64,000 nucleotides of DNA from Patescibacteria group bacterium (GCA_004297205.1 SCUL01000002.1:722893-786892); one strand, 5' to 3'; shown: positions 34,911 through 55,397, numbered from the stretch's first letter. Program-made: numbers and translations. Notes: generated from the letters alone by a model not told the origin.

Positions 34911-34935
34911 TAAAAAAAGACCGGCCGATCTTCGA
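34911..34935 (-). terminator. putative terminator of the Cys-rich lipoprotein gene (minus strand)
   Basis: On the minus strand, a GATCGGCCGGTC near-palindrome is followed by TTTTTTT. Confidence 0.4.
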
Positions 34936-34991
34936 GCGACGCGCGGGCGGACCCACGGACGCTTGAAGACCGGCCGATTGTTCCAGATCGG

Positions 34992-36713: not shown

Positions 36714-36832
36714 GTTTCTCTCCTCCGAGGCACGTATGCCTCACTTTTTCGGTACCCCGCCGATGGCGGAGCGGTTAATGTCTCTATGTGAGGGGTATCG
36801 TAAAAACAAAGAAAAGTCAAGCACACGGACTC

Positions 36833-37288
36833 CTATGACCCGCGGATCTTTTTCGCCAATTCCGCCAACGCCGCGTCGTCTGCGCGTTTGAAATCGTGCG
36901 AGGAGATGTATCCCTCGTACTGTTCAAAGAATTTTTGGATGTTCGATTTGACCGGCCGCCATTCCGGCAGCTTCGTCCCGTGCATCGGGAACAGCTTGAT
37001 ATGGGCGTGGTCGACGCCGAAGCCCTCGGCGATCATGCCGGTGCGGCCGACGTCCTCGAGCCGGGCGTCGATCAGTTTCCCAACCGTCCGCGCTGCCAGA
37101 ACGAGCGGGACCAGGACGTCATCGGGCAGATCGAAGACGTAGCTGGGCTGATGCGTCTTGGTGATGACCACGCTGAAGCCGGGCGTGTTCGGGAAAATCG
37201 ACAAGAAGGCGAGATGCCGCTCGTCTTCCCAGATGCGGTGTGCCGGTGCGTCGCCCGCGGCGATGGCACAGAAGATGCAGGAGGTCAT
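36833..37288 (-). CDS. HIT (histidine triad) family protein
   Basis: MTSCIFCAIAAGD N-terminus and the VDHAHIKLFP histidine triad. 151 aa. Confidence 0.7.
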   Translation of the reverse strand: MTSCIFCAIAAGDAPAHRIWEDERHLAFLSIFPNTPGFSVVITKTHQPSYVFDLPDDVLVPLVLAARTVGKLIDARLEDVGRTGMIAEGFGVDHAHIKLFPMHGTKLPEWRPVKSNIQKFFEQYEGYISSHDFKRADDAALAELAKKIRGS

Positions 37289-37838
37289 GGGGATAACTTT
37301 TTGAAGTGAAGACTCTTTTTCTTGTGGATAAAATAGCACGAAAATGCACACAGGATGTAAACGGTTTCTCGTCTCCGAACGAAAAGTAGGAGTCTTCGTG
37401 TTCACTCATCGTGTACAAACCGCCCTCCATTGACGCTGCATGACGGCACCGTACGCTGGATACAGAAGCAGGAGCGGCGCGCTCGGGTGACAGGTGCGAC
37501 CATCCGAGACCCGCGGCCGGGGAGACCGTCGCTTGCGACGGATAACGAACCGCCCGCGACGCGCCGCTGCCTGTTCGGACGATTCGGACGCGATGCTGTT
37601 CTCCGCGAGCGCTGCTGCCTCGCTCCGCACGTGCGCCTCCACCGCGCTTGCGCCCATGGATGGGCGCCGCGGCCGGCAACCACGGCGGTCGGCGGGACCG
37701 CGCTCGGGCCTTCGGCACGGACCGGCGGCAGTCCTGGGGTGTTTCGCCTGATCTTCTCCCAGTATTGCCGTCGGAGCATTGCGGGATCTTGTCCGATGGC
37801 GACGTCCGTGGTACGTCGAGGAGGAATCTTTTCACTGT

Positions 37839-38462
37839 ATGGATATGCGCAAACACTTCGGAATCGCTTTGGTCGGATTGATGCTGCTCGGCGCCGGCTG
37901 TGCCGCGTCTCAAATTTCTCCTCAAGGGATTGGCAATACGAATGTGCCGCCAGTCGTCGACGAAACAGCGGCTGGTCCTGGGTTGAATGAAATCATTTCG
38001 TGGAAACAGGCCAAGCTGGGCTTTCTCATCCGGCTCCCGGAAACGTGGCGTGTTAGCGAAGTAGATGCTGGTGGAGTGAGTTTGATCCGTATCATTGCTC
38101 CGGAAGGTTCGGAAAAGAACCCTGCTGCGGAGATCTTCGTTCAATTGTCGAAAGACATGGAAGGGAATGCCGTGAGCTCTTTTGAGCAGTGGATCGGTAA
38201 TGGAGGGCGCGTCAATGAACGGCTCATTTCGAAGTCCGTGGCTGGCGGTTCGATCGTCGTCGATGGAGTGACGCTGCAGAAGAGGATCGAAGACGATTCA
38301 ACGATTGCCTATTACGCTCAGCTTGAAACAAACAATGGGGTGTATTTCCGTTGCGCTTACGCTTCGAAGCATCCCCTCAAGAGCGATCTCGAAAGCATCA
38401 TCCGCCAGATGCGCTTCTCTCTTTCCGCAGATGAGTTTGGGCGGGCGCGAGTAATTCCGTAA
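37839..38462 (+). CDS. hypothetical lipoprotein, compositionally atypical (lower GC)
   Basis: MDMRKHFGIALVGLMLLGAGCAAS lipobox; GAGGAGG RBS. Visibly AT-richer codon usage than its neighbours. Confidence 0.5.
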   Translation: MDMRKHFGIALVGLMLLGAGCAASQISPQGIGNTNVPPVVDETAAGPGLNEIISWKQAKLGFLIRLPETWRVSEVDAGGVSLIRIIAPEGSEKNPAAEIFVQLSKDMEGNAVSSFEQWIGNGGRVNERLISKSVAGGSIVVDGVTLQKRIEDDSTIAYYAQLETNNGVYFRCAYASKHPLKSDLESIIRQMRFSLSADEFGRARVIP

Positions 38463-38551
38463 CGTCGGGAACCCAACTATCCCCGGAAGTACTACTGGGG
38501 ATACAGGATTCCAAGACGACAGATCATTGAAAATCTGCAAGGAGTGAGGTC

Positions 38552-40843
38552 ATGCGTGCGATCAGTGTCATTACGTTCTCGTTTGTTGTCGTTGGTTGTG
38601 TCACGGAGGAGGGACGCGGTGGAGCGCTCACCTCGATCACGAGTGACGATGCAGGAGTGTCCGAACACCCGCTGCTCCTCCTGCCGTTCCCGAACCGGAC
38701 CGCGTACCAGTGTGTCCAGGGAGCCGGAGGTTCCTATAGCCACTCTGGTCGGTCGACCCGGTACGATCTCGACTTCGATACTCCCAATGACAGGAACGAG
38801 GTCGTCGTCGCACCGGCAAGCGGGGTTGCCTACATCCACCGTTCCACGGTCGGATTCGGCAATCACGTCAACATCGACATCGGCGGCAACCTGTTCACGG
38901 TCGCGGCCCACCTCCGGAGTTTCCTCGTCGAGGATGGTCAGGAGGTGCTCGTCGGTCAGCCGATCGGGATCGAAGGTACGACCGGCAACTCGATGGGGGA
39001 CCACATCCACTTCGGACTCCACCGCGGTGACCCGAGGGAAGATGCGGCCCTGAGCGATTCGATCCCCGCCGAGAGGATCGTCGCGCGGGATACGTTCGGG
39101 AGCGGCGGGTTCCGCGAATTCCGTTCAGCGGACTTCATCTGTGACCTCGATTGGGGCCACTCGTACGAGTCCAACAACGGAGTGACGCGGCACCCGGTCG
39201 GGACGCTGATCAAGGAGCATGGCCGTCCGGAGATCTATCTCGTCTGCGCGGACGGGGCGATCTGCTGGATCACGAGCGAGGACAACTTCCTCTCGCGGAG
39301 GTTGTACTACTCGCACACCGACCAGTGGGCGCGCGTCGTCGAAGTCAGCCGCGAGGAGATCGACTGCTACGATCGTGGACCGGACTTGGACTACCCTGTG
39401 ACCATGCGGTTCCGGAGGTGCCGGGTTTCCGCATGGTCAAGCGAACGCGCGGTGTACCTCGCCGTCGACGACCGGGGCAACCGCTTCCGCCGGCGCGTTC
39501 CTGTCCCTGAGGGGACCGAGGAGTTCGTTGCCCTCCTTCGATCCTGGGGATTCTCCCCGGTCGAAATCGAAGAGGGGGGAGAGGCCTGCTCCTACGCCGA
39601 GGGAGAGACGCTGTACCTGCGTGACGGGACCGTCGTGCAGGAGGCGTCCGATCCGCGTTTCCGGATCATCTCCAACGACGGTCTGGCATACCGACTCGAT
39701 CCGTTGGATGCCTGGTCGATGCGTTTCCTGCCGCGTCATGTCCTGCAGGCACCGGACGGTGCAACCACTCTGTTGATCCAAGGCGTCGATCCCGACCACC
39801 GCTGGTGGACGAGGGAAGACTCAACGGCATGCCGGACGCCGAGTCCGCCCGGAACCCCGGGCGGCGGCGGAACGGGGGGCGACGGCTCCGATGCCGGCCC
39901 GCTGCCTATGCCCGACGCGGGGGTGCCCTCCGCGCCGGATGCCGGCACCGTCTGCACGCCGCGCGCCGAGACCTGCAACGGCCTCGACGACGACTGCGAC
40001 GGGAGCATCGACGAGGGTGACGCGTGCCGCGTCTGCGTCGCCGGGAGCGAACGCTCCTGCGTGACGTCGTGCGGCTCCGCCAGCGTCCAGGTCTGCTTCT
40101 CGGACGGTTCCGGTTGGAATCCCTGCCGCATCCCGGCGGAGACCTGCGGCAACGGCCGGGATGACAACTGCGACGGATACGTCGACGACGGCTGCTGCAG
40201 GCCCTCCACGGAGACCTGCGACGGCCGCGACAACGACTGCGACGGCGTCATCGACAACGGTGGCGTCTGCGCTCCGCCGCCCGCCTGCGTGGGCGGAAGC
40301 GACCGCGTCTGTACCACGTCCTGCGGATCGACCGGTTCGCAGCGCTGCTACAGCGACGGACACGGCTGGGCGTCGTGCCGGCCGCCGGACGAGATCTGCA
40401 ACGGTCTCGACGACGACTGCGACGGTCTCCGCGACGAAGTCTGCGCTCCGCCGCCGACGCCCGATGCGGGGCCGCCGTCCGTACCGGACGCGGGTCCCGC
40501 CTCGTGCGGACACGCGGTGCGGGTGCGCTTCTCGGCGTACGCCGGATCGTGGAGCTTCGGCTCCGGCTTCGGCACGCCGCACCCCTCCTACGAGGCGGTG
40601 GCGGGTGCCGTCGACCGGCTGTGGAGCTGTGCCGCCCCCGGTTGGCTGCTCCTGAACGGCAGCTTCCCGGGCGGCGCCTGGATGTGCGGCGAGTGGCCGG
40701 CGGGCACCTTCCAGGTGCCGTACGGCCTGCCGGAAGTCACGGTCGACGGGATTCCGGCCACCGTCACGCCCTGGCACAACCCGGAGATCCCGGGCGGGAT
40801 CGGCTGCGACCTGCGCGTCTGCGTGGGCGGCGGCTGCCCCTAG
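38552..40843 (+). CDS. M23 family peptidase lipoprotein with MopE-like Cys-rich repeats
   Basis: Lipobox VVVGCVT. LytM/M23 motifs HVNIDIGG...GTTGNSMGDHIHFGLH. Four CxGxDDDCDGxxDE repeats each followed by CxTSCGSxxxQxCxxDGxGW. AAGGAG RBS. Confidence 0.75.
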   Translation: MRAISVITFSFVVVGCVTEEGRGGALTSITSDDAGVSEHPLLLLPFPNRTAYQCVQGAGGSYSHSGRSTRYDLDFDTPNDRNEVVVAPASGVAYIHRSTVGFGNHVNIDIGGNLFTVAAHLRSFLVEDGQEVLVGQPIGIEGTTGNSMGDHIHFGLHRGDPREDAALSDSIPAERIVARDTFGSGGFREFRSADFICDLDWGHSYESNNGVTRHPVGTLIKEHGRPEIYLVCADGAICWITSEDNFLSRRLYYSHTDQWARVVEVSREEIDCYDRGPDLDYPVTMRFRRCRVSAWSSERAVYLAVDDRGNRFRRRVPVPEGTEEFVALLRSWGFSPVEIEEGGEACSYAEGETLYLRDGTVVQEASDPRFRIISNDGLAYRLDPLDAWSMRFLPRHVLQAPDGATTLLIQGVDPDHRWWTREDSTACRTPSPPGTPGGGGTGGDGSDAGPLPMPDAGVPSAPDAGTVCTPRAETCNGLDDDCDGSIDEGDACRVCVAGSERSCVTSCGSASVQVCFSDGSGWNPCRIPAETCGNGRDDNCDGYVDDGCCRPSTETCDGRDNDCDGVIDNGGVCAPPPACVGGSDRVCTTSCGSTGSQRCYSDGHGWASCRPPDEICNGLDDDCDGLRDEVCAPPPTPDAGPPSVPDAGPASCGHAVRVRFSAYAGSWSFGSGFGTPHPSYEAVAGAVDRLWSCAAPGWLLLNGSFPGGAWMCGEWPAGTFQVPYGLPEVTVDGIPATVTPWHNPEIPGGIGCDLRVCVGGGCP

Positions 40844-40923: not shown

Positions 40924-43626
40924 ATGCGGAACGCATTTTCCCGTTTCATTGCCGCATTCCCGGGCCGGAGATTGGCGCTGCCAGTCGCGTTGTTGGTATT
41001 CGTCGGCGTGTTCGGACTGGCCGGCCACGTCCATGCGGAAGGGCCGCTCTCCGGGATCGAACTTGCCATCGCCAACATCATCGGCAGCATCGCCGTGTTG
41101 TTCGGCTGGGCGATGACGCAGATCCTCCTGTTCCTGACGGAGTTTTTGGTGGCCGTGGCCGGCTACAACGAGTTCGCCACCGCCGACGCCGTGGACCGCG
41201 GTTGGGTGATCGTGCGCGACCTCACGAACATGTTCTTCATCCTGGTGATGCTGATCATCGCCTTCGGCACGATCCTGGGGGTGGAGGAGTACAGCTACAA
41301 GCGCATGCTGCCCCGGCTCTTGATCATGGCCGTGGTCATCAACTTCTCCAAAGTCATTTGCGGTCTGCTGATCGATTTTTCGCAGGTCGTGATGCTGACC
41401 TTCGTGAACGGATTCTCCGCCATCGCCGGCGGCAACTTCGTCCGGATGTTCCAGGTTTCCGGCGCGTGGAACATGATCAACACGAGCAATGACGCATTGC
41501 TTGCCTCCGAAGCGAGTTTCACATGGGCAACGGTCGGCTCCCTGGTGTTGGGCGGCGTGCTGATGATGGTCGCGGCCGTGGCCGTCTTCATCATGACCCT
41601 GATGCTGGTCGGACGCATCGTCATGTTGTGGCTCCTGATCGTGATGTCGCCGCTGGCATTTTTCCTCTCCGCGTTTCCCAAAGGGAAAGCAGCGGAAATG
41701 TACGGCAAATGGTGGGGGATGTTCGGCAACTACGTGATCATCGGGCCGTTCATCGCCTTCTTTCTGTGGTTATCCCTGGCCGTGGCCGGATCCGGCGAGA
41801 TCGCCAGCTCCATGCAGATCGTCCGCGAAGGCGCGGGTGGCGCGGGGACCTCGTTGTTCGTCTCCGACCTCGGCGGCCAGCAGCAGTTCTACTCTTTCGT
41901 CATTGCTATCGCGCTTTTGATGGGCGGCATGTCCATGTCCGCGCAGTTCGGCGTGATGGGCGGCAGCATGATGTCCGGCGCGGCCAGCTACATCCAGAAC
42001 AAAGGCGTCGGCGCCGTGAAGGGGACGGGACGCCTCATCGGCCGGACGGCGCGGCTCGGTGATTCGTGGGTCGCGACGAAGACCGGAGGCGTCAGCGTCG
42101 CTTCGGTCCTTTCGATTCCGCGCCGTCTTGGTGAAGGCACGGAGGCTCGCATCAAGGACAACTACGAGAAAGGAAAGAAGGAAGCGCTCTTGGGTTTGCG
42201 CGAGGGCGGCATCAAGGGCCGCATCCAGGGCTTCGTAGGCGCCTCCGACGAGGTGGCACGGAAAACGGGCATCATTCAGTTCGCCGGCGGAGCCGTCGCC
42301 GCGACGGCACGCGCCATTCCGCAATGGGTGAAGAGGGAAGGATCGAACCGCAGCACCTATCTTCAAAAAGCGGAGGAGGCGCAAAAAGAGGCAGACACCG
42401 AGAAATCCAACAAGGAGGCGGCGGAGCGGGAGAAGGCGGCTGCGGAGGAAACGCTCAAAACGAAGCGCGCTGAGATGGATCGTCTGGACAGCGTCGATGT
42501 CCGTCCGCGGGATTTTGCCCAGCTTCAGTCGTTGCGTGACAGCGCCGAGAAGGCTGGTATGGCGAACCAAGTCTCGGCGTTGGACACCATCATCAACAAG
42601 GGGCGGACCGGGGCGGCGGTTACAGGTGGAGACATTGAGACCTTGCAGGGGACGGGCGTGGGCGGGCCGCTCATGAACCGTTTGGTCGAACAGGCAGAGA
42701 GCAAGCGTCGCTCGCTCGGCGCCACGTACGACGCAAAACGCGCGGAGATCGCGGCTGCCGCAGGGGCCGTTGCCACTGCGGAAGCGAACTTCAATTCGTC
42801 GTCGAGCGCGGAGGCGGCCGCAAAGGCCCGTGTCGAGAAGTGGACGAAGAGTGCGGACAAGACCGGCGTTTCCGGTTTCGGTCCGGAAGTGCCCAAGCAT
42901 GCCATGGATGCCACGGTCACCTCGGCGATGCTCGACGAGGCGCTCAAGGCCAAGGACTACACCTTGGCGCAGCAGCTCGTGGTTAAACTGGGTGAAGACG
43001 GTGAACTCGCCGAGGCCTTGAAGATGCGCAAGCATGGTGAAGGCCTGGAAGGCGTTAAAGCCTTCGCCAAGGAGCTCCAAGGCAAGGGCATGAGCCACAG
43101 CTCGACTATGACTGCGCTGTCCGAAGTCGACTCCAAGTACAAGGCCAAGGGCAATACGGAATATTCCGGCATGATCAAGGGTGGTCCGGGCGGTCGGCTG
43201 CGCTTCGTCAACAACGACGGCGACAGTCTTGAGTATGGGGCGGGCCGTCTCAAGTCCGGCAGCAAGGGGAGCATGGAAAGCAAGCTCCGGGAGGCCAACA
43301 AAACGTCGTTGTTCCAGGTGTCCGACGCAAAAGGCGGCAAGGTCATCGACGCAGCAGGCGCGGCGCTCATCGCCCAGAGCATCGGTGCCATCGTCAAAAC
43401 GGTGGAGAGCAACCGCATGTCCGGCGACATGATGCGCATGTTCGTCGATAAACAGAAGGAAGTCTTGCAGGCCGTTCAGGATGCCGGCATTGCTGCCAGT
43501 GACAAGCGGTTCGAGCAGCTCAAGGACGCCATCGGCAAGATGACGGAACAGATGAAGAGCGTGCCGCCGGACGTCGGCGACGCCATCCGCAAGGTCTACG
43601 CCGCCAAGAAAGCACGCGGCGCATAA
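40924..43626 (+). CDS. VirB6/TrbL-like multi-TM protein with long Ala/Lys/Glu-rich C-terminal extension
   Basis: Signal peptide, then about 8 TM helices with a TrbL-like organisation (aa 1-350), then a roughly 550-aa hydrophilic coiled-coil-like tail. Start moved to ATG 40924; the upstream extension overlaps the M23 gene and terminator. Confidence 0.65.
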   Translation: MRNAFSRFIAAFPGRRLALPVALLVFVGVFGLAGHVHAEGPLSGIELAIANIIGSIAVLFGWAMTQILLFLTEFLVAVAGYNEFATADAVDRGWVIVRDLTNMFFILVMLIIAFGTILGVEEYSYKRMLPRLLIMAVVINFSKVICGLLIDFSQVVMLTFVNGFSAIAGGNFVRMFQVSGAWNMINTSNDALLASEASFTWATVGSLVLGGVLMMVAAVAVFIMTLMLVGRIVMLWLLIVMSPLAFFLSAFPKGKAAEMYGKWWGMFGNYVIIGPFIAFFLWLSLAVAGSGEIASSMQIVREGAGGAGTSLFVSDLGGQQQFYSFVIAIALLMGGMSMSAQFGVMGGSMMSGAASYIQNKGVGAVKGTGRLIGRTARLGDSWVATKTGGVSVASVLSIPRRLGEGTEARIKDNYEKGKKEALLGLREGGIKGRIQGFVGASDEVARKTGIIQFAGGAVAATARAIPQWVKREGSNRSTYLQKAEEAQKEADTEKSNKEAAEREKAAAEETLKTKRAEMDRLDSVDVRPRDFAQLQSLRDSAEKAGMANQVSALDTIINKGRTGAAVTGGDIETLQGTGVGGPLMNRLVEQAESKRRSLGATYDAKRAEIAAAAGAVATAEANFNSSSSAEAAAKARVEKWTKSADKTGVSGFGPEVPKHAMDATVTSAMLDEALKAKDYTLAQQLVVKLGEDGELAEALKMRKHGEGLEGVKAFAKELQGKGMSHSSTMTALSEVDSKYKAKGNTEYSGMIKGGPGGRLRFVNNDGDSLEYGAGRLKSGSKGSMESKLREANKTSLFQVSDAKGGKVIDAAGAALIAQSIGAIVKTVESNRMSGDMMRMFVDKQKEVLQAVQDAGIAASDKRFEQLKDAIGKMTEQMKSVPPDVGDAIRKVYAAKKARGA

Positions 43627-43632
43627 CGCGAT

Positions 43633-44934
43633 ATGGCTTACACCTTCGACATCGACAACCAGCCGACGCTCAACGAGCTTTCCGCCTCGGTGCGTTATGC
43701 CGTGCAGACCAGGAACCGCAAAGGTGCGGACGAGTTCTGCGCCTTCTACGAGCAGTTCCTGCGCGAGAATCCCAAGTTCCGCACGGAGTCGCCACAATTC
43801 GCCGGTGCCTACGACGTGCTCTACGACCAGGCCCGCTGGGTGGCGCTGCCGCATCTGGCCGAGGAGAACGACGTCGTCCAGCTGTTCGAGCAGAAGGTGA
43901 ATGCGTTGAAATTGCAGCCGGAGGGATACGACCTCAAGGACTTGTTCCGTGAGCGGCTGTTGATCACTCCTCTCGAGCAGCGCAACGCCTTCAAGGCCCG
44001 CATCCGCGACGCCCTGCTGCGCAATAAGGAGCAGCTCACCAAACCGTTCCCGGCCATGGGCAGCACGGTGGAGCGGGCCGGTACGGTGTCGAACTGGGTC
44101 ACGGAGTATCTTTCCGTCGTCCGCGACGCCAAGAACGACGCCTTGCTTCAGGCGCGCTTCTTCAACGAGCATCCCGGTTTCCGCACCCTGCTGCCGGACG
44201 AACAGGCCGTTCTCAAAAACATTTTCGGCGTGTTGGAGATGACGCGGCTCGATTCCACCAAAGTGGAAGGCTTCGAGGGGTCGAAGCTCGTCGAGTTGGA
44301 CGGCAAGCTCATGGAATACGACGGCGGCGGATTCTCCGAAGTCGGGCGCGATCTGATGGAAGAGCTCAACAAGCTGCCCGCCTCCTACCGCCCGCCGACG
44401 CAGAAGGAAAAATTGCGCGACCGTTTCAACGATCCGGAACCCGAGCGCCTCGCGATCGCCGCGTCCATGGAGGCGCTGCGCGCCGAGGCCGGTTCCAATC
44501 CGCAGAAGCTGCGCGAACTGCTGGCGCGGGACCTCACGGTTCGGACGGGACAAGCCAAACCCAACGTGCCGCGCGCCGCCGCGGCGCTCCGGCTCTACGC
44601 CGCCGTCCACGACTTCAAGACGCTGCTCGCCGAACGCGCCCTGAACGACCTAATTCGGGCCTTCCTCGAAAAAGAAAAGCGCACCGTGGACCTCGACAGC
44701 TTCAAGGTGTTTCCGCAGGCGCCGCAGTTCCTGAAACTCTTCCTGCAGGTGGTCTTCGAGGACGCGCTTGGCCTGCCGGAAGCGGAAGCGGCGCGCCAGG
44801 CGCTGCAGGTGGCCAACGTGGCCCGCGAGCGGGGAGACGGCGCGCTCATGGACGTCGCTTTCTACGACGAGGAAGACGATGCCTTCCACTGGACCGTGCC
44901 GCTGCGCAAACCGGCCGCCGTCACTGTCCGATAA
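43633..44934 (+). CDS. hypothetical cytoplasmic protein
   Basis: 433 aa, no TM, no family recognised. Begins 7 nt after the VirB6-like stop. Confidence 0.45.
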   Translation: MAYTFDIDNQPTLNELSASVRYAVQTRNRKGADEFCAFYEQFLRENPKFRTESPQFAGAYDVLYDQARWVALPHLAEENDVVQLFEQKVNALKLQPEGYDLKDLFRERLLITPLEQRNAFKARIRDALLRNKEQLTKPFPAMGSTVERAGTVSNWVTEYLSVVRDAKNDALLQARFFNEHPGFRTLLPDEQAVLKNIFGVLEMTRLDSTKVEGFEGSKLVELDGKLMEYDGGGFSEVGRDLMEELNKLPASYRPPTQKEKLRDRFNDPEPERLAIAASMEALRAEAGSNPQKLRELLARDLTVRTGQAKPNVPRAAAALRLYAAVHDFKTLLAERALNDLIRAFLEKEKRTVDLDSFKVFPQAPQFLKLFLQVVFEDALGLPEAEAARQALQVANVARERGDGALMDVAFYDEEDDAFHWTVPLRKPAAVTVR

Positions 44935-44994
44935 AAAAAGAACGCCGGCAGCCGTGGGATGAAACTCCACGACTGCCGGCTCCGGCCCCTTGAG

Positions 44995-45483
44995 CTACCG
45001 CCGCATCTCCCTGATCGTGGCATTCGCGACGAGGAGGAGGATGACGACGAGCGGGATGGGCAGGATGATCGCCCAGCCGATGACGGGGAACCCGTTGTCG
45101 ATGAACCACTGGCCGAGCATCTCCATGAACGGAAACGTCATGAGGATGCCGGACAGCGTGATGAGGCCGAACGCCAGCATCACGCCGACCATGAAGGTCC
45201 AGACGGCTCCGCCGACGATCCACTTGTTGAACCACTTGCCGAATCCGGCGGTGGCGCACGCGGGGCAGGAGCGCCCCTCGTGCCAGCCGTGGCGGCTGCA
45301 CTTGCGGCAGCCGCGGGCGCACTTGCCGTCCTTGCGCCGGGCCTTGCAGCCCGGGCAGTCCGAGAACTGCGCGTTGTAGCCGTACACGCACCAGCGCTGC
45401 GTCGTCCCCGGGGGGACGAACACCGGCACGGTGCCGTGATTTCCGCCGCAGTTGCAGCGGGCATACTCGACGATGTCAGCCAT
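44995..45483 (-). CDS. zinc-ribbon membrane protein (hypothetical)
   Basis: N-terminal CxxC...CxxC...CxxC clusters, then 2 TM. AAGGAG RBS before the ATG at 45483. Confidence 0.45.
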   Translation of the reverse strand: MADIVEYARCNCGGNHGTVPVFVPPGTTQRWCVYGYNAQFSDCPGCKARRKDGKCARGCRKCSRHGWHEGRSCPACATAGFGKWFNKWIVGGAVWTFMVGVMLAFGLITLSGILMTFPFMEMLGQWFIDNGFPVIGWAIILPIPLVVILLLVANATIREMRR

Positions 45484-45602
45484 CGAAATGCTCCTTGCCG
45501 CGGTGCGGCGTCCAGACACGCTCCTGGCAGAATGAGGCGAATTCCTCCTTCTTCCAAGAACGCGCTACCATACTATAAATACGGGGTTTTGTCAAGGGGG
45601 AT

Positions 45603-47027
45603 ATGGCAGAAAACGGCCAAAAACAAGCCAAAAACGATGATGTCGTGATTCCGGTCAAATCCGGTGATCACGTCAGCCTGGTTTCCTTGGGAAACAAGGC
45701 TTTGGCGAAGTCCGTGCCGGCTGCAGCAGGGGACGTAGACAAGGCCGTCTCCCTGCTCGTCCATCCGGACTGGGATGAGGAAAAACGCGCCCGGCTGAAA
45801 CAGCTCGCGCTGTCCTTTTTTTCCGACGTCCGTGACCGCCTGGAACTGCGGGAGGACCTGCAATCGGCCTGGGAGCGGGGCGGCTTGGGCGTTGATGCCG
45901 ACGAGGCGGGGTATATGGTCGGCGTGCTTGGTGCGGTGCGCGACGGGGGATCTCTTCCGGTGCGCCCGGCATCGAAGGTTTCCATGATGCAGCAGCCTTC
46001 CGTGACGACGGCACCGGCCGCGCCTGCCATTGGAGTGAATATTGCCCCTTCAGCCCCAGCGCAGAAAGCGCCGGCTCCCGCCGCTCCGGCACAGATGGTG
46101 GTTGCCCGCTCCGAATTCGCTGGCAAGCGACGCGAGGAGATTTTTGCGGTGCTGGCCAAAGAGATCGTCGACGAGGTCAAACCGCAGCTGGCCGATCCGG
46201 CATTGCATTCCCGGCTGGAAGCGCTGATCGCCACGCGGTTCCGCGGCGTCCGGGATGCCAATGAGGTGCGCGCCCACATGAAGCGCGACGCGGCGCAGGG
46301 CGGCCTCAGCATGACGCCGGCAGAGATCGAGCGTGTCATGACCGTGGTCGAGGACCGCTTCGCCAAAATTTCGAAGGAGCTCCACGCCCAGGAGAAGGGA
46401 TTGGTGATGGAGGGGCTCAAACAGGAGTCCTCCGCCGGCCGCGCCCAGAAGCAGGGGGCGAGCAGCGATCTTCGGGAGTACGAATCCAATCAATGGTACG
46501 AGAAGCGTTTCGAGCGCCAGCCGCAGACGCCGCCTCCGCCCGCACCCAAAGCGCCGCCGGTGCAGGCACCCCCTCCCGCTCCCCCTTCTGCAAGCCTGCC
46601 TGCCGGCAGGCAGGGGGGAGGGAAGCCGCCTGCGGAAGTCGCGGTCGCCGCGCCGCCGGTGCAGGCACCCCGGCCGACCATGCAGGACGCCGAATACCGT
46701 CCCCGGCTGCTCGGCCCCGTTGAGGAGCTCCGCAGCATGACGCTCGACGACTTCCGACGCCTGGCGCGCGATCCTAAGGAAGCGGCGCGCCGCATCCAGG
46801 ATAAAATCCGGCTGCTCGAGGAGGAGGACTACACCCAGCGCGCTGCGGCCATCGCCGCCTGGCGGGGGTCCGTGCCGGTCAAAACGTATCTGGCCGTCAC
46901 GCGCACCATGTTCGACCAGGGAATCGGTCCGGAACAGGCCGTTGCGGCGCAAGGTACGGGCCCGGACGCGCTGACGCTCGAGGAATACAATGCTATAATG
47001 GAGTTGCAGAATTCCTTGAGATACTAG
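45603..47027 (+). CDS. hypothetical protein with Pro/Ala-rich low-complexity region; contains the 20-nt palindrome in-frame
   Basis: 474 aa. PPPPAPKAPPVQAPPPAPPSASLPAGRQGGGKPPAEVAVAAPPVQAPRP. The CCTGCCTGCCGGCAGGCAGG palindrome at 46595-46614 encodes LPAGRQ. Confidence 0.45.
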   Translation: MAENGQKQAKNDDVVIPVKSGDHVSLVSLGNKALAKSVPAAAGDVDKAVSLLVHPDWDEEKRARLKQLALSFFSDVRDRLELREDLQSAWERGGLGVDADEAGYMVGVLGAVRDGGSLPVRPASKVSMMQQPSVTTAPAAPAIGVNIAPSAPAQKAPAPAAPAQMVVARSEFAGKRREEIFAVLAKEIVDEVKPQLADPALHSRLEALIATRFRGVRDANEVRAHMKRDAAQGGLSMTPAEIERVMTVVEDRFAKISKELHAQEKGLVMEGLKQESSAGRAQKQGASSDLREYESNQWYEKRFERQPQTPPPPAPKAPPVQAPPPAPPSASLPAGRQGGGKPPAEVAVAAPPVQAPRPTMQDAEYRPRLLGPVEELRSMTLDDFRRLARDPKEAARRIQDKIRLLEEEDYTQRAAAIAAWRGSVPVKTYLAVTRTMFDQGIGPEQAVAAQGTGPDALTLEEYNAIMELQNSLRY

Positions 47028-47459
47028 ATGCCAGGACAGTACACGGTGCCGCAATTCATCGACGTCGAGGACAAGATTCTGGGTCCGCTGACGACCCGGC
47101 AGTTCGTGATCATCCTCGGCACCTTCGGCGTCGATTTCCTCCTGTACCGGCTGCTGCAATTCGGTTTCTTCCTGCTGATCGGCCTGCCGGTCTTCCTGGC
47201 GGGGATCACGCTGGCCTTTGCGCGCGTCAACGGGCAGCCGTTCCACTTTTTCCTGCTGAATCTGATTCAGACCTACCGCCGTCCGGACGTCCGCGTTTGG
47301 AACAAAGAGCTCTCCGAGGCGGAATTGCGGATGCTCATCAGCCGCCCGCCGCCGCCCGCGCCGCCCGTCAAAGTCCGCAAAGAAGCCCTTACCACCTCGA
47401 AGCTTTCCGAGCTCTCGCTCGTCGTGAACACGGGCGGCGTCTACCGCCCGGAAGACTAG
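47028..47459 (+). CDS. PrgI/VirB3-like small membrane protein
   Basis: YTVPQFIDVEDKILGPLTTRQFVIILG followed by two TM helices matches the PrgI family N-terminal pattern. The ATG abuts the upstream stop. Confidence 0.55.
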   Translation: MPGQYTVPQFIDVEDKILGPLTTRQFVIILGTFGVDFLLYRLLQFGFFLLIGLPVFLAGITLAFARVNGQPFHFFLLNLIQTYRRPDVRVWNKELSEAELRMLISRPPPPAPPVKVRKEALTTSKLSELSLVVNTGGVYRPED

Positions 47460-47592
47460 AACGTCCGCGTATGGCGCATTTCATCGTTAGCAGCTGCGGT
47501 GCTCCCTCAACGTACGCTTTGGTACGTTTCGGTTCGCTCCTCGCTGCTGCCTCGAACTGCGCGCATACCCGGCCGTTCTAGAATCGACTGAT

Positions 47593-48267
47593 ATGGCCAG
47601 CAAAGCCGCCAGCGCAAAGCGTCCCAGCACCCAGCAGTTTTTGGACATCGCCGAAATCAAGGAGGACGTCGTCATCATGAAGGACGGCACGCTCCGGGCG
47701 GTGCTGTTGTGTTCGTCCGTCAACTTCGCCCTGAAGTCGGAAGAGGAGCAGGAGGCCATCATCTCCGCCTACGTCGGCTTCCTGAACGCGCTCGAATACC
47801 CGCTCCAGATCGTGGTGCAGAGCCGGAAGCTGAACGTCGAGGAATACCTGAACCGTCTGTCCGAGGCGCAGCGTACCCAGACTAACGAACTGTTGAAGGC
47901 GCAGATCGCCGACTACCGGCAGTTCGTGTTCGAGCTGATTTCGCTCGGGCAGATCATGAGCAAGCGTTTCTACGTCGTGATTCCGTACGATCCCATGACC
48001 AACAAGCGCAAGGGGTTCTTCGCCCGGATGCGGGAAACGCTCGTGCCGGCGCTCTCGTTGCGGCTGCGCGAAGAGCAGTTCCGCCAGCGGCGCAAGGATT
48101 TGCTGTTGCGCGTCGACAGCGTCGCCTCGAATCTCGGCTCCATGAGCGTCTCCGCCGCCGTGCTCGACACCCAATCGTTGATCGAACTCTATTACACCGC
48201 CTACAACCCGGACGTCGCCGATTCGGAGAAGCTGACCGACGTCGGCAAAATGCGCATCGAAGCCTGA
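47593..48267 (+). CDS. virB4: VirB4/TraC-type N-terminal domain protein (split VirB4, part 1)
   Basis: QQFLDIAEIKEDVVIMKDGTLRAVLLCSSVNFALKSEEEQE matches the VirB4 N-terminal consensus. Stop TGA is 1 nt before the ATG of the ATPase ORF. Confidence 0.6.
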   Translation: MASKAASAKRPSTQQFLDIAEIKEDVVIMKDGTLRAVLLCSSVNFALKSEEEQEAIISAYVGFLNALEYPLQIVVQSRKLNVEEYLNRLSEAQRTQTNELLKAQIADYRQFVFELISLGQIMSKRFYVVIPYDPMTNKRKGFFARMRETLVPALSLRLREEQFRQRRKDLLLRVDSVASNLGSMSVSAAVLDTQSLIELYYTAYNPDVADSEKLTDVGKMRIEA

Positions 48268-48268
48268 T

Positions 48269-50173
48269 ATGGCCTTCCAACCCTTCAAAGCGCTCCGCGG
48301 CAAGCGCGCCCCGATCGATGTCGGCGGCACGCTGGTGACGGACACCGAAGCCAAGAAGAAGATCGCCGTCGAAAGGGAAGCGCTCGAGGAAGAGCGCGTG
48401 TATCGGCGCGGCACCGTCTCCATCAAGGATCTGATCGCTCCGGCGGCGATGAAGGTCGAACCGTCGCACGTGCTGCTCGGCGACATGTACGTGCGCACCA
48501 TCTTCGTCGTGACCTATCCGCGCTACGTTTCCGTGGGGTGGTTCACGCCGATCCTGAATTTGAACCTGATGCTCGACGTGGGCATGTTCTTCTACCCGGT
48601 GAAGGCCCACATCATCCTCAAACAGCTCAAGAACAAGGTCGGTACCATCGAGGCGCAGATCCTTTCGGACGCGGAAAAGGGCGCGCCGCGCGATCCCTTG
48701 CGCGAAACGGCGCTGCGCGACATCGAAAAGCTCCGCGACGACCTGACCCAGGGGATCGAGCATTTCTTCCAATACGCCCTCTACGTCACGATGTACGCCA
48801 AGAGCAAGGAAGAGCTCGACCGTTACACGCAGGATGTGGAGAACATTTTCGGCGGCAAGCTGATCTACAGCAAGAAAGTCTTCTACCAGGCGGAGCAGGG
48901 CTTCAACTCCACGCTCCCGCTCGGCAACGACGAGCTGCAGATCACCTTCAACATGAACAGCTCGCCGATCGCCTCGAGCTTCCCGTTCACCTCGGCCGAC
49001 CTGACGTCGGACAACGGCATTCTCTACGGCATCAACCGCCACAACAATTCACTGATCCTGTTCGACCGTTTCTCGCTGCAGAATGCCAACGCCGTGGTCT
49101 TCGCCACCTCCGGCGCCGGAAAATCGTACGCCGTGAAGCTCGAAGTGCTCCGCTCGCTGATGCTCGGCACCGACGTGCTGATCATCGACCCGGAAATGGA
49201 GTACAAGCATCTCTCGGACGCCGTCGGCGGCGCCTACATCAACATTTCGCTGGCTTCCGATTCCAAGATCAATCCGTTCGAGCTGCCGCGCCCGGTCGGG
49301 GAGCAGGTTTCGGTCGAGGACATCATCCGGAGCGCCGTCATTACATTGAAAGGCCTGATCCGCCTCATGCTCGGCGGCAAAATAACGACGGCCGAAGACT
49401 CGATCATCGACCGCGCGCTTCTTGAAACGTACGCCAAAAAAGACATCGTGCCGGGCGCGGACCTGTCGCGCGTCGAGCCGCCGATCTTCCAGGATTTCCA
49501 GGAAGTACTCCAGGGTATGGAAGGCGCGGGCGACCTGGTGGAGCGGCTCAAGAAATACACGGAAGGCACCTTCGCCGGTCTCATCAACTCGCCGACCACG
49601 GTCGACATCCGGAATTCCCTCGTCATCTTCTCGGTCCGCGACCTGGAAGACGAACTGCGGCCGATGGCCATCTACACCATCGTCAACTTCATCTGGAACG
49701 TGGTGCGCTCCGAGCGCAAGCGGCGCATCCTCGTCATCGACGAAGCCTGGTGGCTCATGCAGCATGAGGATTCGGCCAAGTTCATCTTCGCGCTGGTGAA
49801 GCGCTGCCGCAAATACTACCTGGGCGTCACCACCATCACCCAGGACGTCAACGACTTCCTGACGTCCCCCTACGGCCAGGCCATCGTCACCAACTCCTCG
49901 CTGCAGATGCTTTTGAAGCAGTCGCCGGCCTCGATCGAGCTGATCGCCAAAACCTTCCTGCTGACGCAAGGGGAGAAATATCTGCTGCTCGAGAGCGGGG
50001 TCGGTGAAGGCATTTTCTTCGCCGGACAGAAACACGCCGCCATCAAGATCGTGGCCTCGTACGCCGAAGACCAGGTCATCACCTCCGACCCGCGGCAGCT
50101 GCTCGAAATCGAGCAGGCCAAGAAGGAATTCCAACAGCAGTCCGCCGCCGCGGAAGGCGCTCCCGCCGTATGA
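48269..50173 (+). CDS. virB4: VirB4/TrbE-family type IV secretion ATPase (part 2, ATPase domain)
   Basis: Walker A VVFATSGAGKSYAV and Walker B RRILVIDEAWWLM. 634 aa. Confidence 0.85.
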   Translation: MAFQPFKALRGKRAPIDVGGTLVTDTEAKKKIAVEREALEEERVYRRGTVSIKDLIAPAAMKVEPSHVLLGDMYVRTIFVVTYPRYVSVGWFTPILNLNLMLDVGMFFYPVKAHIILKQLKNKVGTIEAQILSDAEKGAPRDPLRETALRDIEKLRDDLTQGIEHFFQYALYVTMYAKSKEELDRYTQDVENIFGGKLIYSKKVFYQAEQGFNSTLPLGNDELQITFNMNSSPIASSFPFTSADLTSDNGILYGINRHNNSLILFDRFSLQNANAVVFATSGAGKSYAVKLEVLRSLMLGTDVLIIDPEMEYKHLSDAVGGAYINISLASDSKINPFELPRPVGEQVSVEDIIRSAVITLKGLIRLMLGGKITTAEDSIIDRALLETYAKKDIVPGADLSRVEPPIFQDFQEVLQGMEGAGDLVERLKKYTEGTFAGLINSPTTVDIRNSLVIFSVRDLEDELRPMAIYTIVNFIWNVVRSERKRRILVIDEAWWLMQHEDSAKFIFALVKRCRKYYLGVTTITQDVNDFLTSPYGQAIVTNSSLQMLLKQSPASIELIAKTFLLTQGEKYLLLESGVGEGIFFAGQKHAAIKIVASYAEDQVITSDPRQLLEIEQAKKEFQQQSAAAEGAPAV

Positions 50174-50793
50174 CCCGCCGTCAGCGTCTGATCATCATCG
50201 GCGTGCTCGTCAGCCTCGTCGCGCTCGGTATCGCGGCGTTTCTGGTGCTGCGTCCCGCGCCTGCCGTGAACACGCCGGCCGAGCAGCCGGAAACGCCGGG
50301 CCTGCCGCTCGCGCCTTCCACGAACCAGCCCGTCAACGCGCCGGCTTCACCCGCGACGTCGACCCCTGCTCCGACGCCGACCTTCAGCCGCGCCTCGGCC
50401 CGGGAAATCCTCGAACAGCAACTGAAAACGAGCGGCGCGCAGTTCGCCGAACGCTTCGGCACCTACTCCAACCAAGGCGATTTTCAGAACCTGATCGACC
50501 TGTTTCCGCTCATGACGGAGCGCATGCAGCAGCAGACCCAGCGCACCATCGACGCCGCCAGCGCCGCAACATCGACCCCGAGCACGTACGTCGGCGTCAC
50601 GACGCGTCCGGTGACGACGACGGTCGTTTCCGTGGATGAGACAGGCGGCCGCGCCACGATCCGGGTCTCCGCCCAGCGAGCCACCCAGACCGGCGACGCC
50701 CAGCCCGTGACGCGCTACGAAACCCTGACCATCGAGTTCCGGAACCAGCAGAACGTATGGAAGGTCGACAGCGCCCGGTGGTCGACGCCCTGA
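50170..50793 (+). CDS. hypothetical membrane-anchored protein
   Basis: N-terminal TM (LIIIGVLVSLVALGIAAFLVL), a Pro/Thr-rich linker and a C-terminal globular domain. ATGA overlap with the VirB4 stop. Confidence 0.4.
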   Translation: MTRRQRLIIIGVLVSLVALGIAAFLVLRPAPAVNTPAEQPETPGLPLAPSTNQPVNAPASPATSTPAPTPTFSRASAREILEQQLKTSGAQFAERFGTYSNQGDFQNLIDLFPLMTERMQQQTQRTIDAASAATSTPSTYVGVTTRPVTTTVVSVDETGGRATIRVSAQRATQTGDAQPVTRYETLTIEFRNQQNVWKVDSARWSTP

Positions 50794-51419
50794 GGCGGCC
50801 GGTCCGGTGGTTGCTCGACGCCCTCTTTCCCGACGCCTGCGCCGGCTGCGGAGCCGAGCGGACGATCGTCTGCGACGCTTGCTGGGCCGCCATGCCGTTC
50901 ATGAGCGAACCGCAGCGGCTCGCCGAGCTCGACGTCTGGAGCGTGACTCGTTTCCAGGCACCGGTGGTCCGCGGCGTGGTCCATGCGCTCAAATACGGAC
51001 GACGTCCCGAGGCGGCGGCGCGCATCGCGGAAGCGCTGGCACGGCATCCGGCCGCGGACCTGCTGCGTGCGACACCCTGGCGCATCGTCCCCGTTCCGAT
51101 GCATGCGGCGCGCGAACGGCGGCGCGGCGCCAACCAGGCCCGCACCCTGGCGTGGCTGCTGGCAGAGGCCGGGTGCGGGACGGTCGACGATGTGCTGTTG
51201 CGCGTGCGGCGCACCGGGACGCAGACCGCGCTAGACCGCGCGCAGCGCGAGCGCAACGTCAAAGATGCCTTCCGTAGCCGCACTTTCGCGGATCCGCAGG
51301 CGGCATATCTGCTCGTCGACGACGTGGTGACGACCGGCGCGACCCTCACATCCGCAGCCCGCGCGCTCACGGATGCGGGCGCCACGCGGGTCGCGGCCTG
51401 GACGTTCGCCGCGGATTGA
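50757..51419 (+). CDS. comF: ComF-family protein (competence, phosphoribosyltransferase domain)
   Basis: N-terminal CxxC...CxxC zinc finger (CAGCG...CDAC). PRTase motif LLVDDVVTTGATL. Start at ATG 50757 or GTG 50778, overlapping the upstream gene. Confidence 0.75.
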   Translation: MEGRQRPVVDALRRPVRWLLDALFPDACAGCGAERTIVCDACWAAMPFMSEPQRLAELDVWSVTRFQAPVVRGVVHALKYGRRPEAAARIAEALARHPAADLLRATPWRIVPVPMHAARERRRGANQARTLAWLLAEAGCGTVDDVLLRVRRTGTQTALDRAQRERNVKDAFRSRTFADPQAAYLLVDDVVTTGATLTSAARALTDAGATRVAAWTFAAD

Positions 51420-53267: not shown

Positions 53268-53354
53268 GTGACTTCCTCCGCAGGCACCCTAGTCAAAAAA
53301 TGGCCGAATGTCAAGGATCTTCCCTTGATTCGTACCGGCCGTTACAATCCGCCC

Positions 53355-55397
53355 ATGCCGCTTGAGACGCCCATCATTGCCGCCGTCCCGCTGTTGAAGC
53401 GCCACGCCAAAGCGTTCGAGGCGCTGGGGCTTGCCACGCTCGGAGACATGCTCGGCCACTACCCGTTCCGCTACGAGGACTACTCGCGGACGGTGCCGTT
53501 GTCCTCCGTCGTGCCGGGGGAGGACGTCACGGTGCGGGTCCGGCTGGAGCAGATCCGCAACCGCCGGAGTTTCTTCGGTCCGCGTCGGATCATCACCGAG
53601 GGGCTCGTTGCCGACGGGAGCGGCAAGGCACGGGTCCTGTGGTTCGGCCAGTTTTATCTGACGAAGACGCATCTCCCGGGCAGCGAGGTGTTTCTGGCCG
53701 GCCGGGCGCGACGCACTGCAGCGGGGCTCCAGTTCATCTCGCCGACCATCGAAGCCGTGCGCGCCGAGCAGATGCACACCGGGCGCATCGTGCCGGTCTA
53801 CCCGACCTCCGGCACGCTGTCCGTGAAACATTTGCGTCTGGCAGCCAAGGCGGCGCTCCCTGCCTGCGAGGAGCTGCGTGAGTGGCTGCCGACGGGCGTC
53901 CGGCATCGCCTGCATCTGACCGACCTGCGGCGCGCGACGCGCGCCGCGCATTTCCCGCCGGACCAGCCGACGCTCGACGCCGCGCAGGAGCGCATTGCCG
54001 CGGGGGAGTTGTTCCTGCGGGTGCTTGTCGCCGAACGGGCGCGGGCAGAACTGGCGCAAACCCGTGCCGTGCCGGTGCCGTTTCCGGAAGCCGTGATCAA
54101 AGCGTTCGTAGCCGGTCTGCCGTTTGCGATCACCGACGGCCAACGCCGTGCCGCGTGGGACGCGCTTCGGGATATGGCGAAGGAGCGCCCGATGCACCGG
54201 CTTTTGAACGGCGATGTCGGTTCCGGAAAAACCGCGGTCGCCGCCATCGCCGCCCGGGCCGTGGCCGCGTCCGGCGGCCAGACCGCCGTGCTCGTGCCGA
54301 CCGAGGTCCTGGCTGTGCAGCACGGGCGCACGTTTTCCGCATGGTTCGCTCCGGCGGGGGTCTCCGTGATGACGCTTACCGCCGGGATGCGCGCGGCGGA
54401 AAAAGAAGCGGCGAAGTCCGCCATCGCTTCCGGCGCCGCGCAAGTGGTGATCGGCACGCAGGCGTTGCTCGAAGACGCCGTGGCCTTCCGTGACCTGCGC
54501 CTGGCCGTGGTCGACGAACAGCATCGCTTCGGCGTGCGCCAGCGCCAGGCGCTGCACCGCAAGCGCGCGGACGGTGCCCTGCCGCACCTGCTCTCGCTTA
54601 CCGCAACGCCCATTCCGCGGACGCTGTCGCTCGCCGTGTTCGGCGACCTCGACGTGTCCGTCATTCCGACCCGTCCCGCCGGGCGCACAGCGATCGCGAC
54701 CGAGATTGTCGGTGCGGGAACGGCACCGGCCGATCGGGGTATTGCCGCCGCCATTGCCGCAGGGGAGCAGGTCTTCGTCATTTGCCCGGCCATCGACGAG
54801 CGGCCGGAAAGCGGCCGCGAGGCGGTCGTTGCCGAACATCGCCGTTTGCAAAAACTCCTTCCGGACGCCCACGTCGCACTGATGCACGGCAAACTCACGT
54901 CCGCCCGGAAACGAGAGATCATGGAGCGGTTCGCTTCCGGCGCGCCGGGCGTCCTGGTGTCGACGACGGTCATCGAAGTCGGTATCGATCTGCCGCGCGC
55001 GACCCTCATGGTGGTCCGCTCCGCCGAACGCTTCGGCCTGGCCCAGCTCCACCAGCTTCGCGGCCGGGTCGGACGCGGCGTGCTGCCGGGCCGCTGTTTG
55101 CTCCTCACCGAATCCGAGGCGCCCGCGGCCATGGCCAGGTTGAACGCACTGGTCTCATCCGCGGATGGCTTCGCCTTGGCGGAAGAGGACCTTCGTTTGC
55201 GGGGACCGGGGGATCTGCTCGGCACCATGCAGTCCGGCATGCAGGCGGCCTGGCAACCCGCCCTGCTGGACCCGAAAAAGATCGCCGTTCTTCAAGAAGA
55301 GTCCCGGGCGCTGCTCGCCGAGGACCCCGAGTTTGCCGCGCATGAGGAGCTCGCGGCCGTGTTTTCCCGCTTCGAGCGGACCATCCACCGCGAATAG
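53355..55397 (+). CDS. recG: ATP-dependent DNA helicase RecG
   Basis: Wedge-domain N-terminus, Walker A GDVGSGKT, a DEQH box, and helicase C motifs. Start set at ATG 53355 (MPLETPII); the ORF-track extension to 52221 overlaps other genes. Confidence 0.9.
   Translation: MPLETPIIAAVPLLKRHAKAFEALGLATLGDMLGHYPFRYEDYSRTVPLSSVVPGEDVTVRVRLEQIRNRRSFFGPRRIITEGLVADGSGKARVLWFGQFYLTKTHLPGSEVFLAGRARRTAAGLQFISPTIEAVRAEQMHTGRIVPVYPTSGTLSVKHLRLAAKAALPACEELREWLPTGVRHRLHLTDLRRATRAAHFPPDQPTLDAAQERIAAGELFLRVLVAERARAELAQTRAVPVPFPEAVIKAFVAGLPFAITDGQRRAAWDALRDMAKERPMHRLLNGDVGSGKTAVAAIAARAVAASGGQTAVLVPTEVLAVQHGRTFSAWFAPAGVSVMTLTAGMRAAEKEAAKSAIASGAAQVVIGTQALLEDAVAFRDLRLAVVDEQHRFGVRQRQALHRKRADGALPHLLSLTATPIPRTLSLAVFGDLDVSVIPTRPAGRTAIATEIVGAGTAPADRGIAAAIAAGEQVFVICPAIDERPESGREAVVAEHRRLQKLLPDAHVALMHGKLTSARKREIMERFASGAPGVLVSTTVIEVGIDLPRATLMVVRSAERFGLAQLHQLRGRVGRGVLPGRCLLLTESEAPAAMARLNALVSSADGFALAEEDLRLRGPGDLLGTMQSGMQAAWQPALLDPKKIAVLQEESRALLAEDPEFAAHEELAAVFSRFERTIHRE

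Follow-up and report, generated by a model that had tools for sequence, protein, structure and literature searches.

A compact group of genes at positions 40924-51419 of a 64-kb window (the whole stretch analysed here, 64,000 nucleotides of GCA_004297205.1, SCUL01000002.1:722893-786892, Patescibacteria group bacterium) raises the question of whether a type IV secretion system (T4SS) standing directly beside the competence gene comF is a conjugation apparatus, a DNA importer or a device for contact with a host cell. The ultra-small Patescibacteria, or candidate phyla radiation (CPR), live in dependence on host cells and account for a large share of the diversity of bacteria. In all likelihood, the locus is a chromosomal, Uhrbacteria-like T4SS of the Patescibacteria clade in the arrangement of the class ABY1 (Uhrbacteria, Magasanikbacteria, Falkowbacteria), which descends from MPF_FATA conjugation systems and is no longer a conjugation apparatus. 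The first-pass annotation of this DNA had read it as a CPR-type T4SS-like machine linked to ComF and not conjugative, and this view was borne out by the CPR relatives of the genes, the housekeeping flanks, the conserved synteny and the lack of a relaxase or coupling protein in the scanned 64 kb.

Systems of this kind have been described. A survey of 3,035 CPR genomes (Quiñonero-Coronel et al. 2025, PMC12102498) reports that 2,425 VirB4 proteins group together as a monophyletic Patescibacteria clade within MPF_FATA; that TrsD, PrgI/VirB3, VirB6 and VirB2-like pilins are widespread in CPR, with VirB8 homologues being rare and almost confined to ABY1; that relaxases are nearly absent and homologues of the type IV coupling protein (T4CP) lie far from virB4; and that comF, recG and radA are common members of T4SS loci in ABY1. 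The window locus agrees with this description in its components and setting. An ATPase of the MPF_FATA lineage adjoins separate TrsD, PrgI/VirB3 and VirB6 homologues, a probable VirB8-like gene of the type rarely found outside ABY1 is present, VirB2-like (PF18895) pilin genes lie nearby, and within the 64 kb the locus is chromosomal, with neither relaxase nor T4CP beside virB4 and with comF, recG and radA in the vicinity. It differs in having a minus-strand zinc-ribbon gene, a gene for a 433-residue protein (hyp433) and a hairpin between prgI and trsD, and nothing essential is different. The locus adds no new kind of system; the comF/recG/radA linkage in ABY1 is also part of the published description, and the first-pass annotation amounts to a correct rediscovery.

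The assignment is carried by the ATPase and its neighbours. The VirB4-family ATPase (48269-50173, plus strand, 634 aa) matches PF19044 (9.8e-27, 94 bits), with additional AAA_10 and DUF87 matches, and its score for the NCBIfam model conju_CD1110, a family of VirB4 proteins from monoderm conjugative elements, lies above the cutoff (5e-106, 355.6 bits versus 325, model positions 180-730). The Walker A (ATSGAGKS) and Walker B (ILVIDEA) motifs are intact. More than 8,000 homologues were recovered, of which the best 120 show 75-96% identity and, with few exceptions, lengths of 600-680 aa. The closest relatives that carry names, likewise at 75-96% identity, are Candidatus Uhrbacteria, Magasanikbacteria and Patescibacteria group bacteria, which is strongly suggestive of a place in the monophyletic Patescibacteria clade. 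The open reading frame (ORF) upstream encodes a TrsD-like protein (47593-48267, plus strand, 224 aa) with matches to NF041427 TrsD (4.2e-7), to positions 99-233 of VirB4_plasma (2.7e-8) and to positions 2-92 of CD1110, and PF26593 (TraC-like) is recorded on products identical or orthologous to it. The PrgI/VirB3-like protein (47028-47459, plus strand, 143 aa) has two transmembrane helices and matches PF12666 with E = 3.1e-11 (44.1 bits versus a cutoff of 27). At the end of the cluster, ComF (50757-51419, plus strand, 220 aa) shows matches to DZR_2 (29.4 bits versus a cutoff of 27), Pribosyltran (1e-5), TIGR00201 comF (4e-25, below the equivalog-style cutoff) and GntX (7e-26), and a CxxC...CxxC zinc finger and a VDDVVTTGAT motif as in the ComFC/GntX family. 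In combination, hidden Markov model (HMM) searches with PF12666, PF19044, conju_CD1110 and DZR_2 plus the phosphoribosyltransferase domain support the identities proposed earlier for PrgI, VirB4 and ComF.

The gene order was compared across 80 loci from species-representative genomes, in which VirB4 is 72-91% identical to that of the window. Many of these records (GTDB) are titled "uncultured Gammaproteobacteria", an evident placeholder mislabel; those with a proper name come from Uhr-, Magasanik- and Falkowbacteria, members of class ABY1. The core series of VirB6-like protein, hyp474, PrgI, TrsD, VirB4, tm207 and ComF (hyp474 and tm207 being proteins of 474 and 207 aa) recurs throughout these 80 species-level genomes, and the co-occurrence proposed as a check in the first-pass annotation was thereby found. 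ORF calling placed hyp474 upstream in 63 of 67 loci, tm207 next to VirB4 in 58 of 71, and ComF within three genes in 61 of 71; all of these are lower bounds, obtained from crude calls on loci with enough sequence.

The membrane components are more divergent. The VirB6-like polytopic protein (40924-43626, plus strand, 900 aa) has a signal peptide and about six transmembrane helices within residues 1-345 according to hydropathy, followed by a long hydrophilic tail rich in A, G, K and E. The tail had been described as a coiled coil of roughly 550 aa; it is about 510 aa long and coiled-coil-prone in patches only, and it evolves fast, being recovered by an iterated HMM in four loci only. Neither Pfam nor NCBIfam gave a match for the window protein, and a profile of its membrane domain found no matches among PDB sequences. 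Of the Pfam families matched by 53 homologues, TrbL/VirB6 ranks first (four matches, best 1e-5), and one close homologue exceeds the gathering threshold of that family. Comparison of the predicted structure with VirB6 folds (Foldseek) gave E = 0.04 with template-modelling scores (TM) of 0.32-0.44. The VirB6 assignment was accepted because of the TrbL matches in the homologues together with the predicted fold, which support a divergent VirB6-like protein. The outcome that the first-pass annotation had named as refuting it, HMM searches failing to support VirB6 or PrgI, did not arise: PrgI exceeds its Pfam cutoff, and the VirB6-like protein has the TrbL matches of its homologues and its fold. 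PF19590, precomputed on several of the homologues, did not recur at E <= 0.01 in our Pfam scan and was not used.

The second membrane component, tm207 (50170-50793, plus strand, 207 aa), overlaps the stop of virB4 (ATGA) and consists of one N-terminal transmembrane anchor, a proline-rich linker and an alpha+beta domain of about 125 aa. This C-terminal domain matches SnoaL_4 (4.8e-5), an NTF2-like fold. In searches of tm207 family profiles against PDB, the best match was PrgL (7aed_A), the VirB8-like protein of pCF10, at a weak E = 0.02; with a profile of the domain by itself PrgL was the sole notable match, again weak at E = 0.017, the next standing at 0.35. One tm207 homologue matches TcpC, and an iterative HMM detected tm207 in 69 of 84 loci. 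Both position and architecture are as expected for VirB8, and tm207 is probably a VirB8/PrgL-like component, to judge from these faint similarities.

Two genes for VirB2-like pilin-domain proteins, paralogues of each other, are located on the minus strand 6 kb downstream, beyond RadA. Protein A (57360-58592, about 410 aa, its start placed by the rise in GC content at third codon positions, GC3, and by the signal peptide) matches PF18895 at 3e-3; protein B (58583-59776, 397 aa) matches PF18895 (T4SS_pilin) at 2e-5, with 25.0 bits versus a gathering threshold of 26.6, and the NCBIfam Mbov_0395 pilin-like model at 0.015. Each is made up of a signal peptide, a VirB2-like pilin domain with two transmembrane segments and a soluble C-terminal domain of about 250 aa that differs between the paralogues. 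Orthologues in three related loci (L001-L003) carry clear PF18895 domains, one of them also Peptidase_M23. One window paralogue ends in HYDHIHVSVY, and it is the Uhrbacteria orthologue of that same paralogue which carries Peptidase_M23; fusions of pilin and hydrolase would be unusual among T4SS pilins. Saccharibacteria loci have pilin arrays and hydrolases beside virB4, whereas the pilin-fusion genes of the window stand beyond radA instead. With these two genes at 57360-59776 and the probable VirB8/PrgL-like tm207, the words "minimal" and "orphan", which the first-pass annotation had used of the system, no longer apply.

The window has about 65% GC, and raw ORF lists are crowded with antisense artefacts; the gene set was consequently taken from the agreement of a codon-position GC filter, HMM matches and public gene calls on an identical 11.3-kb contig (L085). 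Nine genes lie between 40924 and 51419, of 900, 433, 162 (minus strand), 474, 143, 224, 634, 207 and 220 aa in the public calls, and GC3 in the called frames is 0.75-0.93. The ends of the cluster had been given exactly by the first-pass annotation, the VirB6-like ORF beginning at 40924 and ComF finishing at 51419. The spacers are, in gene order, 6, 60, 83, 0, 133, 1, -4 and -37 nt, the last (tm207-ComF) becoming +17 nt if ComF starts at the TTG at 50811. The claimed spacing of 0-7 nt or ATGA overlaps accordingly fails for three of the eight junctions (60, 83 and 133 nt). Nor do all genes form one same-strand string: the zinc-ribbon gene is on the minus strand, and the plus-strand ORFs that overlap it translate to sequence unlike protein.

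Could the locus be an ordinary integrative conjugative element (ICE) or a plasmid-derived conjugation system, with relaxase and coupling protein just beyond the window? The CD1110-family VirB4 belongs to the MPF_FATA conjugation lineage, and tRNA genes, common integration sites of ICEs, are found just downstream. The order VirB6-...-VirB3-(TrsD)-VirB4-VirB8-like is also that of conjugation systems such as pGO1 (TrsC-TrsD-TrsE) and pCF10 (PrgH-PrgI-PrgJ-PrgK-PrgL), and the likeness extends to the VirB4 above the CD1110 cutoff and to the TrsD, PrgI and PrgL similarities. However, Pfam scans of plausible ORFs across the 64 kb revealed no relaxase, coupling protein or integrase, and replication functions of an element were likewise absent among the ORFs scanned. 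The GC content of the cluster (0.60-0.64) is slightly under that of its flanks and inside the range of the window, the flanks are housekeeping genes, and the gene order, including the neighbours of the tRNAs, is kept across 80 species-level genomes. PMC12102498 counts relaxases in 103 of about 3,000 CPR genomes, near virB4 in 15 only. Unlike the MPF_FATA conjugation systems, the window locus is chromosomal and vertically conserved, has no adhesin, relaxase or coupling protein in its vicinity, encodes pilin-domain proteins of VirB2-like type, which are missing from Gram-positive systems (PMC12857230), and shows no VirB1-type hydrolase between VirB4 and the VirB8-like gene. The conjugative reading is, on balance, very improbable. 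A decaying remnant, in which the two VirB4 ORFs stem from a frameshift or an assembly error in a pseudogenised system, is less credible still and has next to no probability. It would be in line with such a remnant that the ORFs are in different frames and meet at TGAtATG, with one nucleotide between them. Against it, trsD and virB4 are separate ORFs in 81 of 81 related loci, which rules out the frameshift, and in four of these (L043, L056, L065, L066) 5-8 kb with several genes are inserted between the two. Nearly all listed homologues of the C-terminal ORF share its 600-680 aa, TrsD is a recognised family of its own (NCBIfam; also in PMC12102498), and the Walker motifs remain intact at 72-96% identity across species. 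Since the TrsD-like ORF corresponds to the N-terminal part of VirB4 models, the two ORFs tile one VirB4, and the inserted genes show that the halves function as independent genes. The "split VirB4" of the first-pass annotation is thus indeed encoded by two ORFs, but these represent a known, stable TrsD + VirB4 pair, a division which is universal and ancient in this lineage.

With conjugation set aside, the function of the chromosomal Patescibacteria-clade T4SS has to be weighed between import and contact. By analogy to established T4SS biology, VirB4 hexamers with TrsD would sit at the cytoplasmic membrane, docked on PrgI/VirB3 and VirB6, passage through the wall would be scaffolded by the VirB8-like protein, and the VirB2-like proteins would build a pilus or a conduit to the host cell; judging from work on Saccharibacteria, a life in dependence on a host is likely to require the T4SS. 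The system may import nucleic acid from the host or the environment and pass it on to ComF and the recombination helicases. We consider such import a possibility of rather less than even weight; it is favoured to that degree because comF is tightly placed and co-oriented in ABY1 and because recG and radA are conserved nearby, recG holding the same position in four related loci (L001-L003 and L086) and radA in three (L001-L003). Import of DNA or other macromolecules is also what the authors of PMC12102498 hypothesise. The T4SS may equally be purely a host-contact, pilus or effector machine, with comF-recG-radA as inherited ABY1 synteny without functional coupling, and we regard this as quite possible, somewhat short of probable. 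A pilus, adhesion or effector role is the main alternative and at least as likely as import, given the results on Southlakia epibionticum, a linkage confined to one class and no ComEC in the window. Experiments on strain ML1 of this species (Wang et al. 2023, via a 2025 FEMS review, PMC12857230) found that epibiotic growth on the host cannot do without the T4SS and type IV pili, whereas comEC is needed for transformation and not for viability. According to PMC12102498, the comF linkage is reported for ABY1 only, and most other classes have dnaA/dnaN and ribosome-related neighbours. ComF, RecG and RadA are ordinary housekeeping proteins whose genes could lie together merely through inherited gene order; two tRNA-Ser genes stand between comF and recG, and three loci (L059, L083, L084) have dsbA-radA straight after tm207, without comF. 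Mere synteny is opposed by the spacing. In tblastn searches comF is co-oriented in 73 of 73 loci and, in 66, directly follows tm207 at no more than 900 nt from the virB4 stop, often overlapping tm207 or starting within a few nucleotides of it, which is tighter than mere neighbourhood and suggests co-transcription. What tells against our interpretation can be gathered here: the window VirB6-like protein is below Pfam thresholds and its fold comparison reaches an E of only 0.04, the VirB8-like call for tm207 relies on E ~0.02, both pilin proteins are below Pfam thresholds, the published T4SS experiments concern Southlakia epibionticum and not ABY1, and, for DNA import in particular, T4SS essentiality is independent of comEC in Southlakia, the linkage is one of ABY1, and neither ComEC nor ComEA was detected in the window.

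Two import systems invite comparison with the Patescibacteria-clade T4SS. Like the Helicobacter pylori ComB system, the window locus is devoid of VirD4, VirB11 and relaxase and has VirB4 as its sole ATPase, and cooperation with classical competence proteins has been proposed (PMC12857230). ComB, however, is a diderm system with VirB7, VirB9 and VirB10 and demonstrated DNA uptake, whereas the window locus is known from its genes alone: neither an outer-membrane core nor ComEC was found in the window, where scans gave no matches to VirB7, VirB9 or VirB10. The first-pass annotation had indeed reported no coupling protein, relaxase or VirB7/VirB9/VirB10, and Pfam scans of the window ORFs agree. 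The archaeal Ced system (CedA/CedB) also uses a VirB4/HerA-type ATPase for import, and the window VirB4 is weakly similar to CedB (4e-12). At 45 bits versus a CedB cutoff of 700, and with no CedA-type partners, the window system is not a member.

Of the proteins in the cluster that had been proposed as candidates for novel components, hyp474 (45603-47027, plus strand, 474 aa) proved to be a conserved core member of the ABY1 cluster, near-universal in these loci, whereas hyp433 and the zinc-ribbon gene are variable. hyp474 abuts prgI with a 0 nt spacer, has neither a transmembrane segment nor a signal peptide and is a cytoplasmic protein. It contains two copies of a helical module of about 65 aa (RLRDVR...GGLG...A; repeat E = 1e-4), present twice in 52 of 76 homologues, as well as a long helix, a proline-rich linker and a conserved C-terminal helical domain. 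Structure prediction, suggested earlier for the embedded proteins, gave an AlphaFold2 (AF2) model of hyp474 with three confident helical modules separated by disordered Pro/Ala-rich linkers; no Pfam, NCBIfam, PDB-sequence or fold match was obtained. An exhaustive profile search of public data recovered 2,499 representative clusters (50% identity), 1,435 of these at E <= 1e-30, and a divergent member was located in a VirB6-X-PrgI context like that of the window. The family was not seen named in PMC12102498. It is a large, T4SS-linked family without a name, which looks like a gap in the protein-family databases. Conceivably, and in our estimate against the likelihood, hyp474 could be a new core T4SS subunit, e.g. 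a cytoplasmic adaptor or receptor that replaces the missing coupling protein and, together with ComF, couples the VirB4 motor to the import of nucleic acid and its delivery to RecG and RadA. If true, the ABY1 system would be a monoderm T4SS that works as an importer.

The other insertions in the cluster are less widespread. The soluble protein hyp433 (43633-44934, plus strand, 433 aa) is a variable accessory detected by iterative HMM in 21 of 84 loci, about a quarter; it shows no transmembrane segments and no Pfam, NCBIfam or PDB-sequence match. A relation of hyp433 and hyp474 as paralogues was rejected (hhalign E = 0.16, probability <1%). The Cys-rich, zinc-ribbon-like protein (44995-45519, minus strand, 162-174 aa) has two C-terminal transmembrane helices and is identified by its translation, transmembrane prediction, GC3 of 0.93 and a public call, with a promoter-like site on the minus strand at 45595-45567. 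No family was found for it in Pfam, NCBIfam or by iterative HMM over the loci, and only weak positional analogues turned up (L001, E = 0.034; L006, 4e-4). It was rejected as a conserved component, and the gene is treated as lineage-specific, being found in the closest relatives only. The 133-nt spacer between prgI and trsD is occupied by one long imperfect hairpin (47457-47582, plus strand; ends CTAGAACG...CGTTCTAG) with an RNA minimum free energy of -61.1 kcal/mol (z = -5.8; 0 of 200 shuffles equally stable). The hairpin occurs once in the window and in none of 84 related loci, whose PrgI-TrsD gap has a median of about 23 nt. A small inserted palindrome could account for it, as could an element for mRNA processing or stability within the operon.

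Beyond the cluster, the window encodes RecG helicase (53289-55397, plus strand, start approximate; RecG_wedge, DEAD, Helicase_C, RecG_dom3_C) and the RadA/Sms recombination protein (55982-57343, minus strand; zinc ribbon, KaiC-type ATPase/AAA_25, Lon_C, ChlI). Its remaining housekeeping genes include those for ArgRS, a histidine kinase, bactofilin, CysRS, NusA, YidC, GroES/EL, a release factor, Sua5, KsgA, HIT, DsbA and ClpB. There are five tRNAs, and an Rfam scan of the window found tRNAs only. Recent horizontal transfer of the cluster was rejected from its GC content, which is within the range of the window; the overall figure of about 65% is unusually high for a CPR genome, related Uhrbacteria bins being named with 57-61% GC. 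Two minus-strand genes of about 480 aa upstream of the VirB6-like gene in many Uhrbacteria were considered as components and turned out to encode the Der GTPase and an LCP-family protein, both housekeeping. The coding signal is weak at 34800-38500, where a 573-aa minus-strand ORF (34992-36713, GC3 0.82) has no family match and the HIT gene is at 36833-37405 (minus strand); between HIT and the following M23 peptidase gene no ORF has a convincing codon bias.

The gene for this secreted M23 peptidase (38552-40843, plus strand; Peptidase_M23 1.2e-15, Cu-binding_MopE 9e-14) precedes the VirB6-like gene, with a terminator-like hairpin between the two, and its product carries four MopE-type Cys-rich CNGxDDDCDG repeats. 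It is a possible VirB1-like cell-wall hydrolase, of uncertain association with the cluster; the gene was found upstream of the VirB6-like gene in the closest relatives only (L001, L005, L006, L075). Further upstream, a secreted protein of 3,038 aa (24612-33728, plus strand) has a signal peptide, a G/A/T-rich composition and no Pfam domain, and directly 5' of it lies a gene for a small protein (23946-24596, plus strand) with bacterial thrombospondin type-3 (TSP3) repeats, which may belong with the giant protein. In the window, five genes stand between the giant protein and the VirB6-like gene. At least a dozen ABY1 loci (L011, L016, L023, L026, L035, L036, L039, L052, L057, L060, L071, L073, L077, L086) have a homologue of the giant protein that ends directly 5' of the VirB6-like gene, and the protein is a candidate for a T4SS-linked adhesin or substrate.

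The locus is a clean, well-resolved example of the ABY1 arrangement. To our knowledge, the chromosomal T4SS of CPR bacteria is the only T4SS that is essential for the growth of its owner. What keeps the locus of interest is the family of hyp474, together with tm207 as a probable VirB8-like protein, the fusions of pilin-hydrolase type and the giant secreted protein, whose gene in relatives often stands directly before virB6; among these, the hyp474 family and the giant secreted protein are the most promising unexplored parts for understanding how the machine functions.

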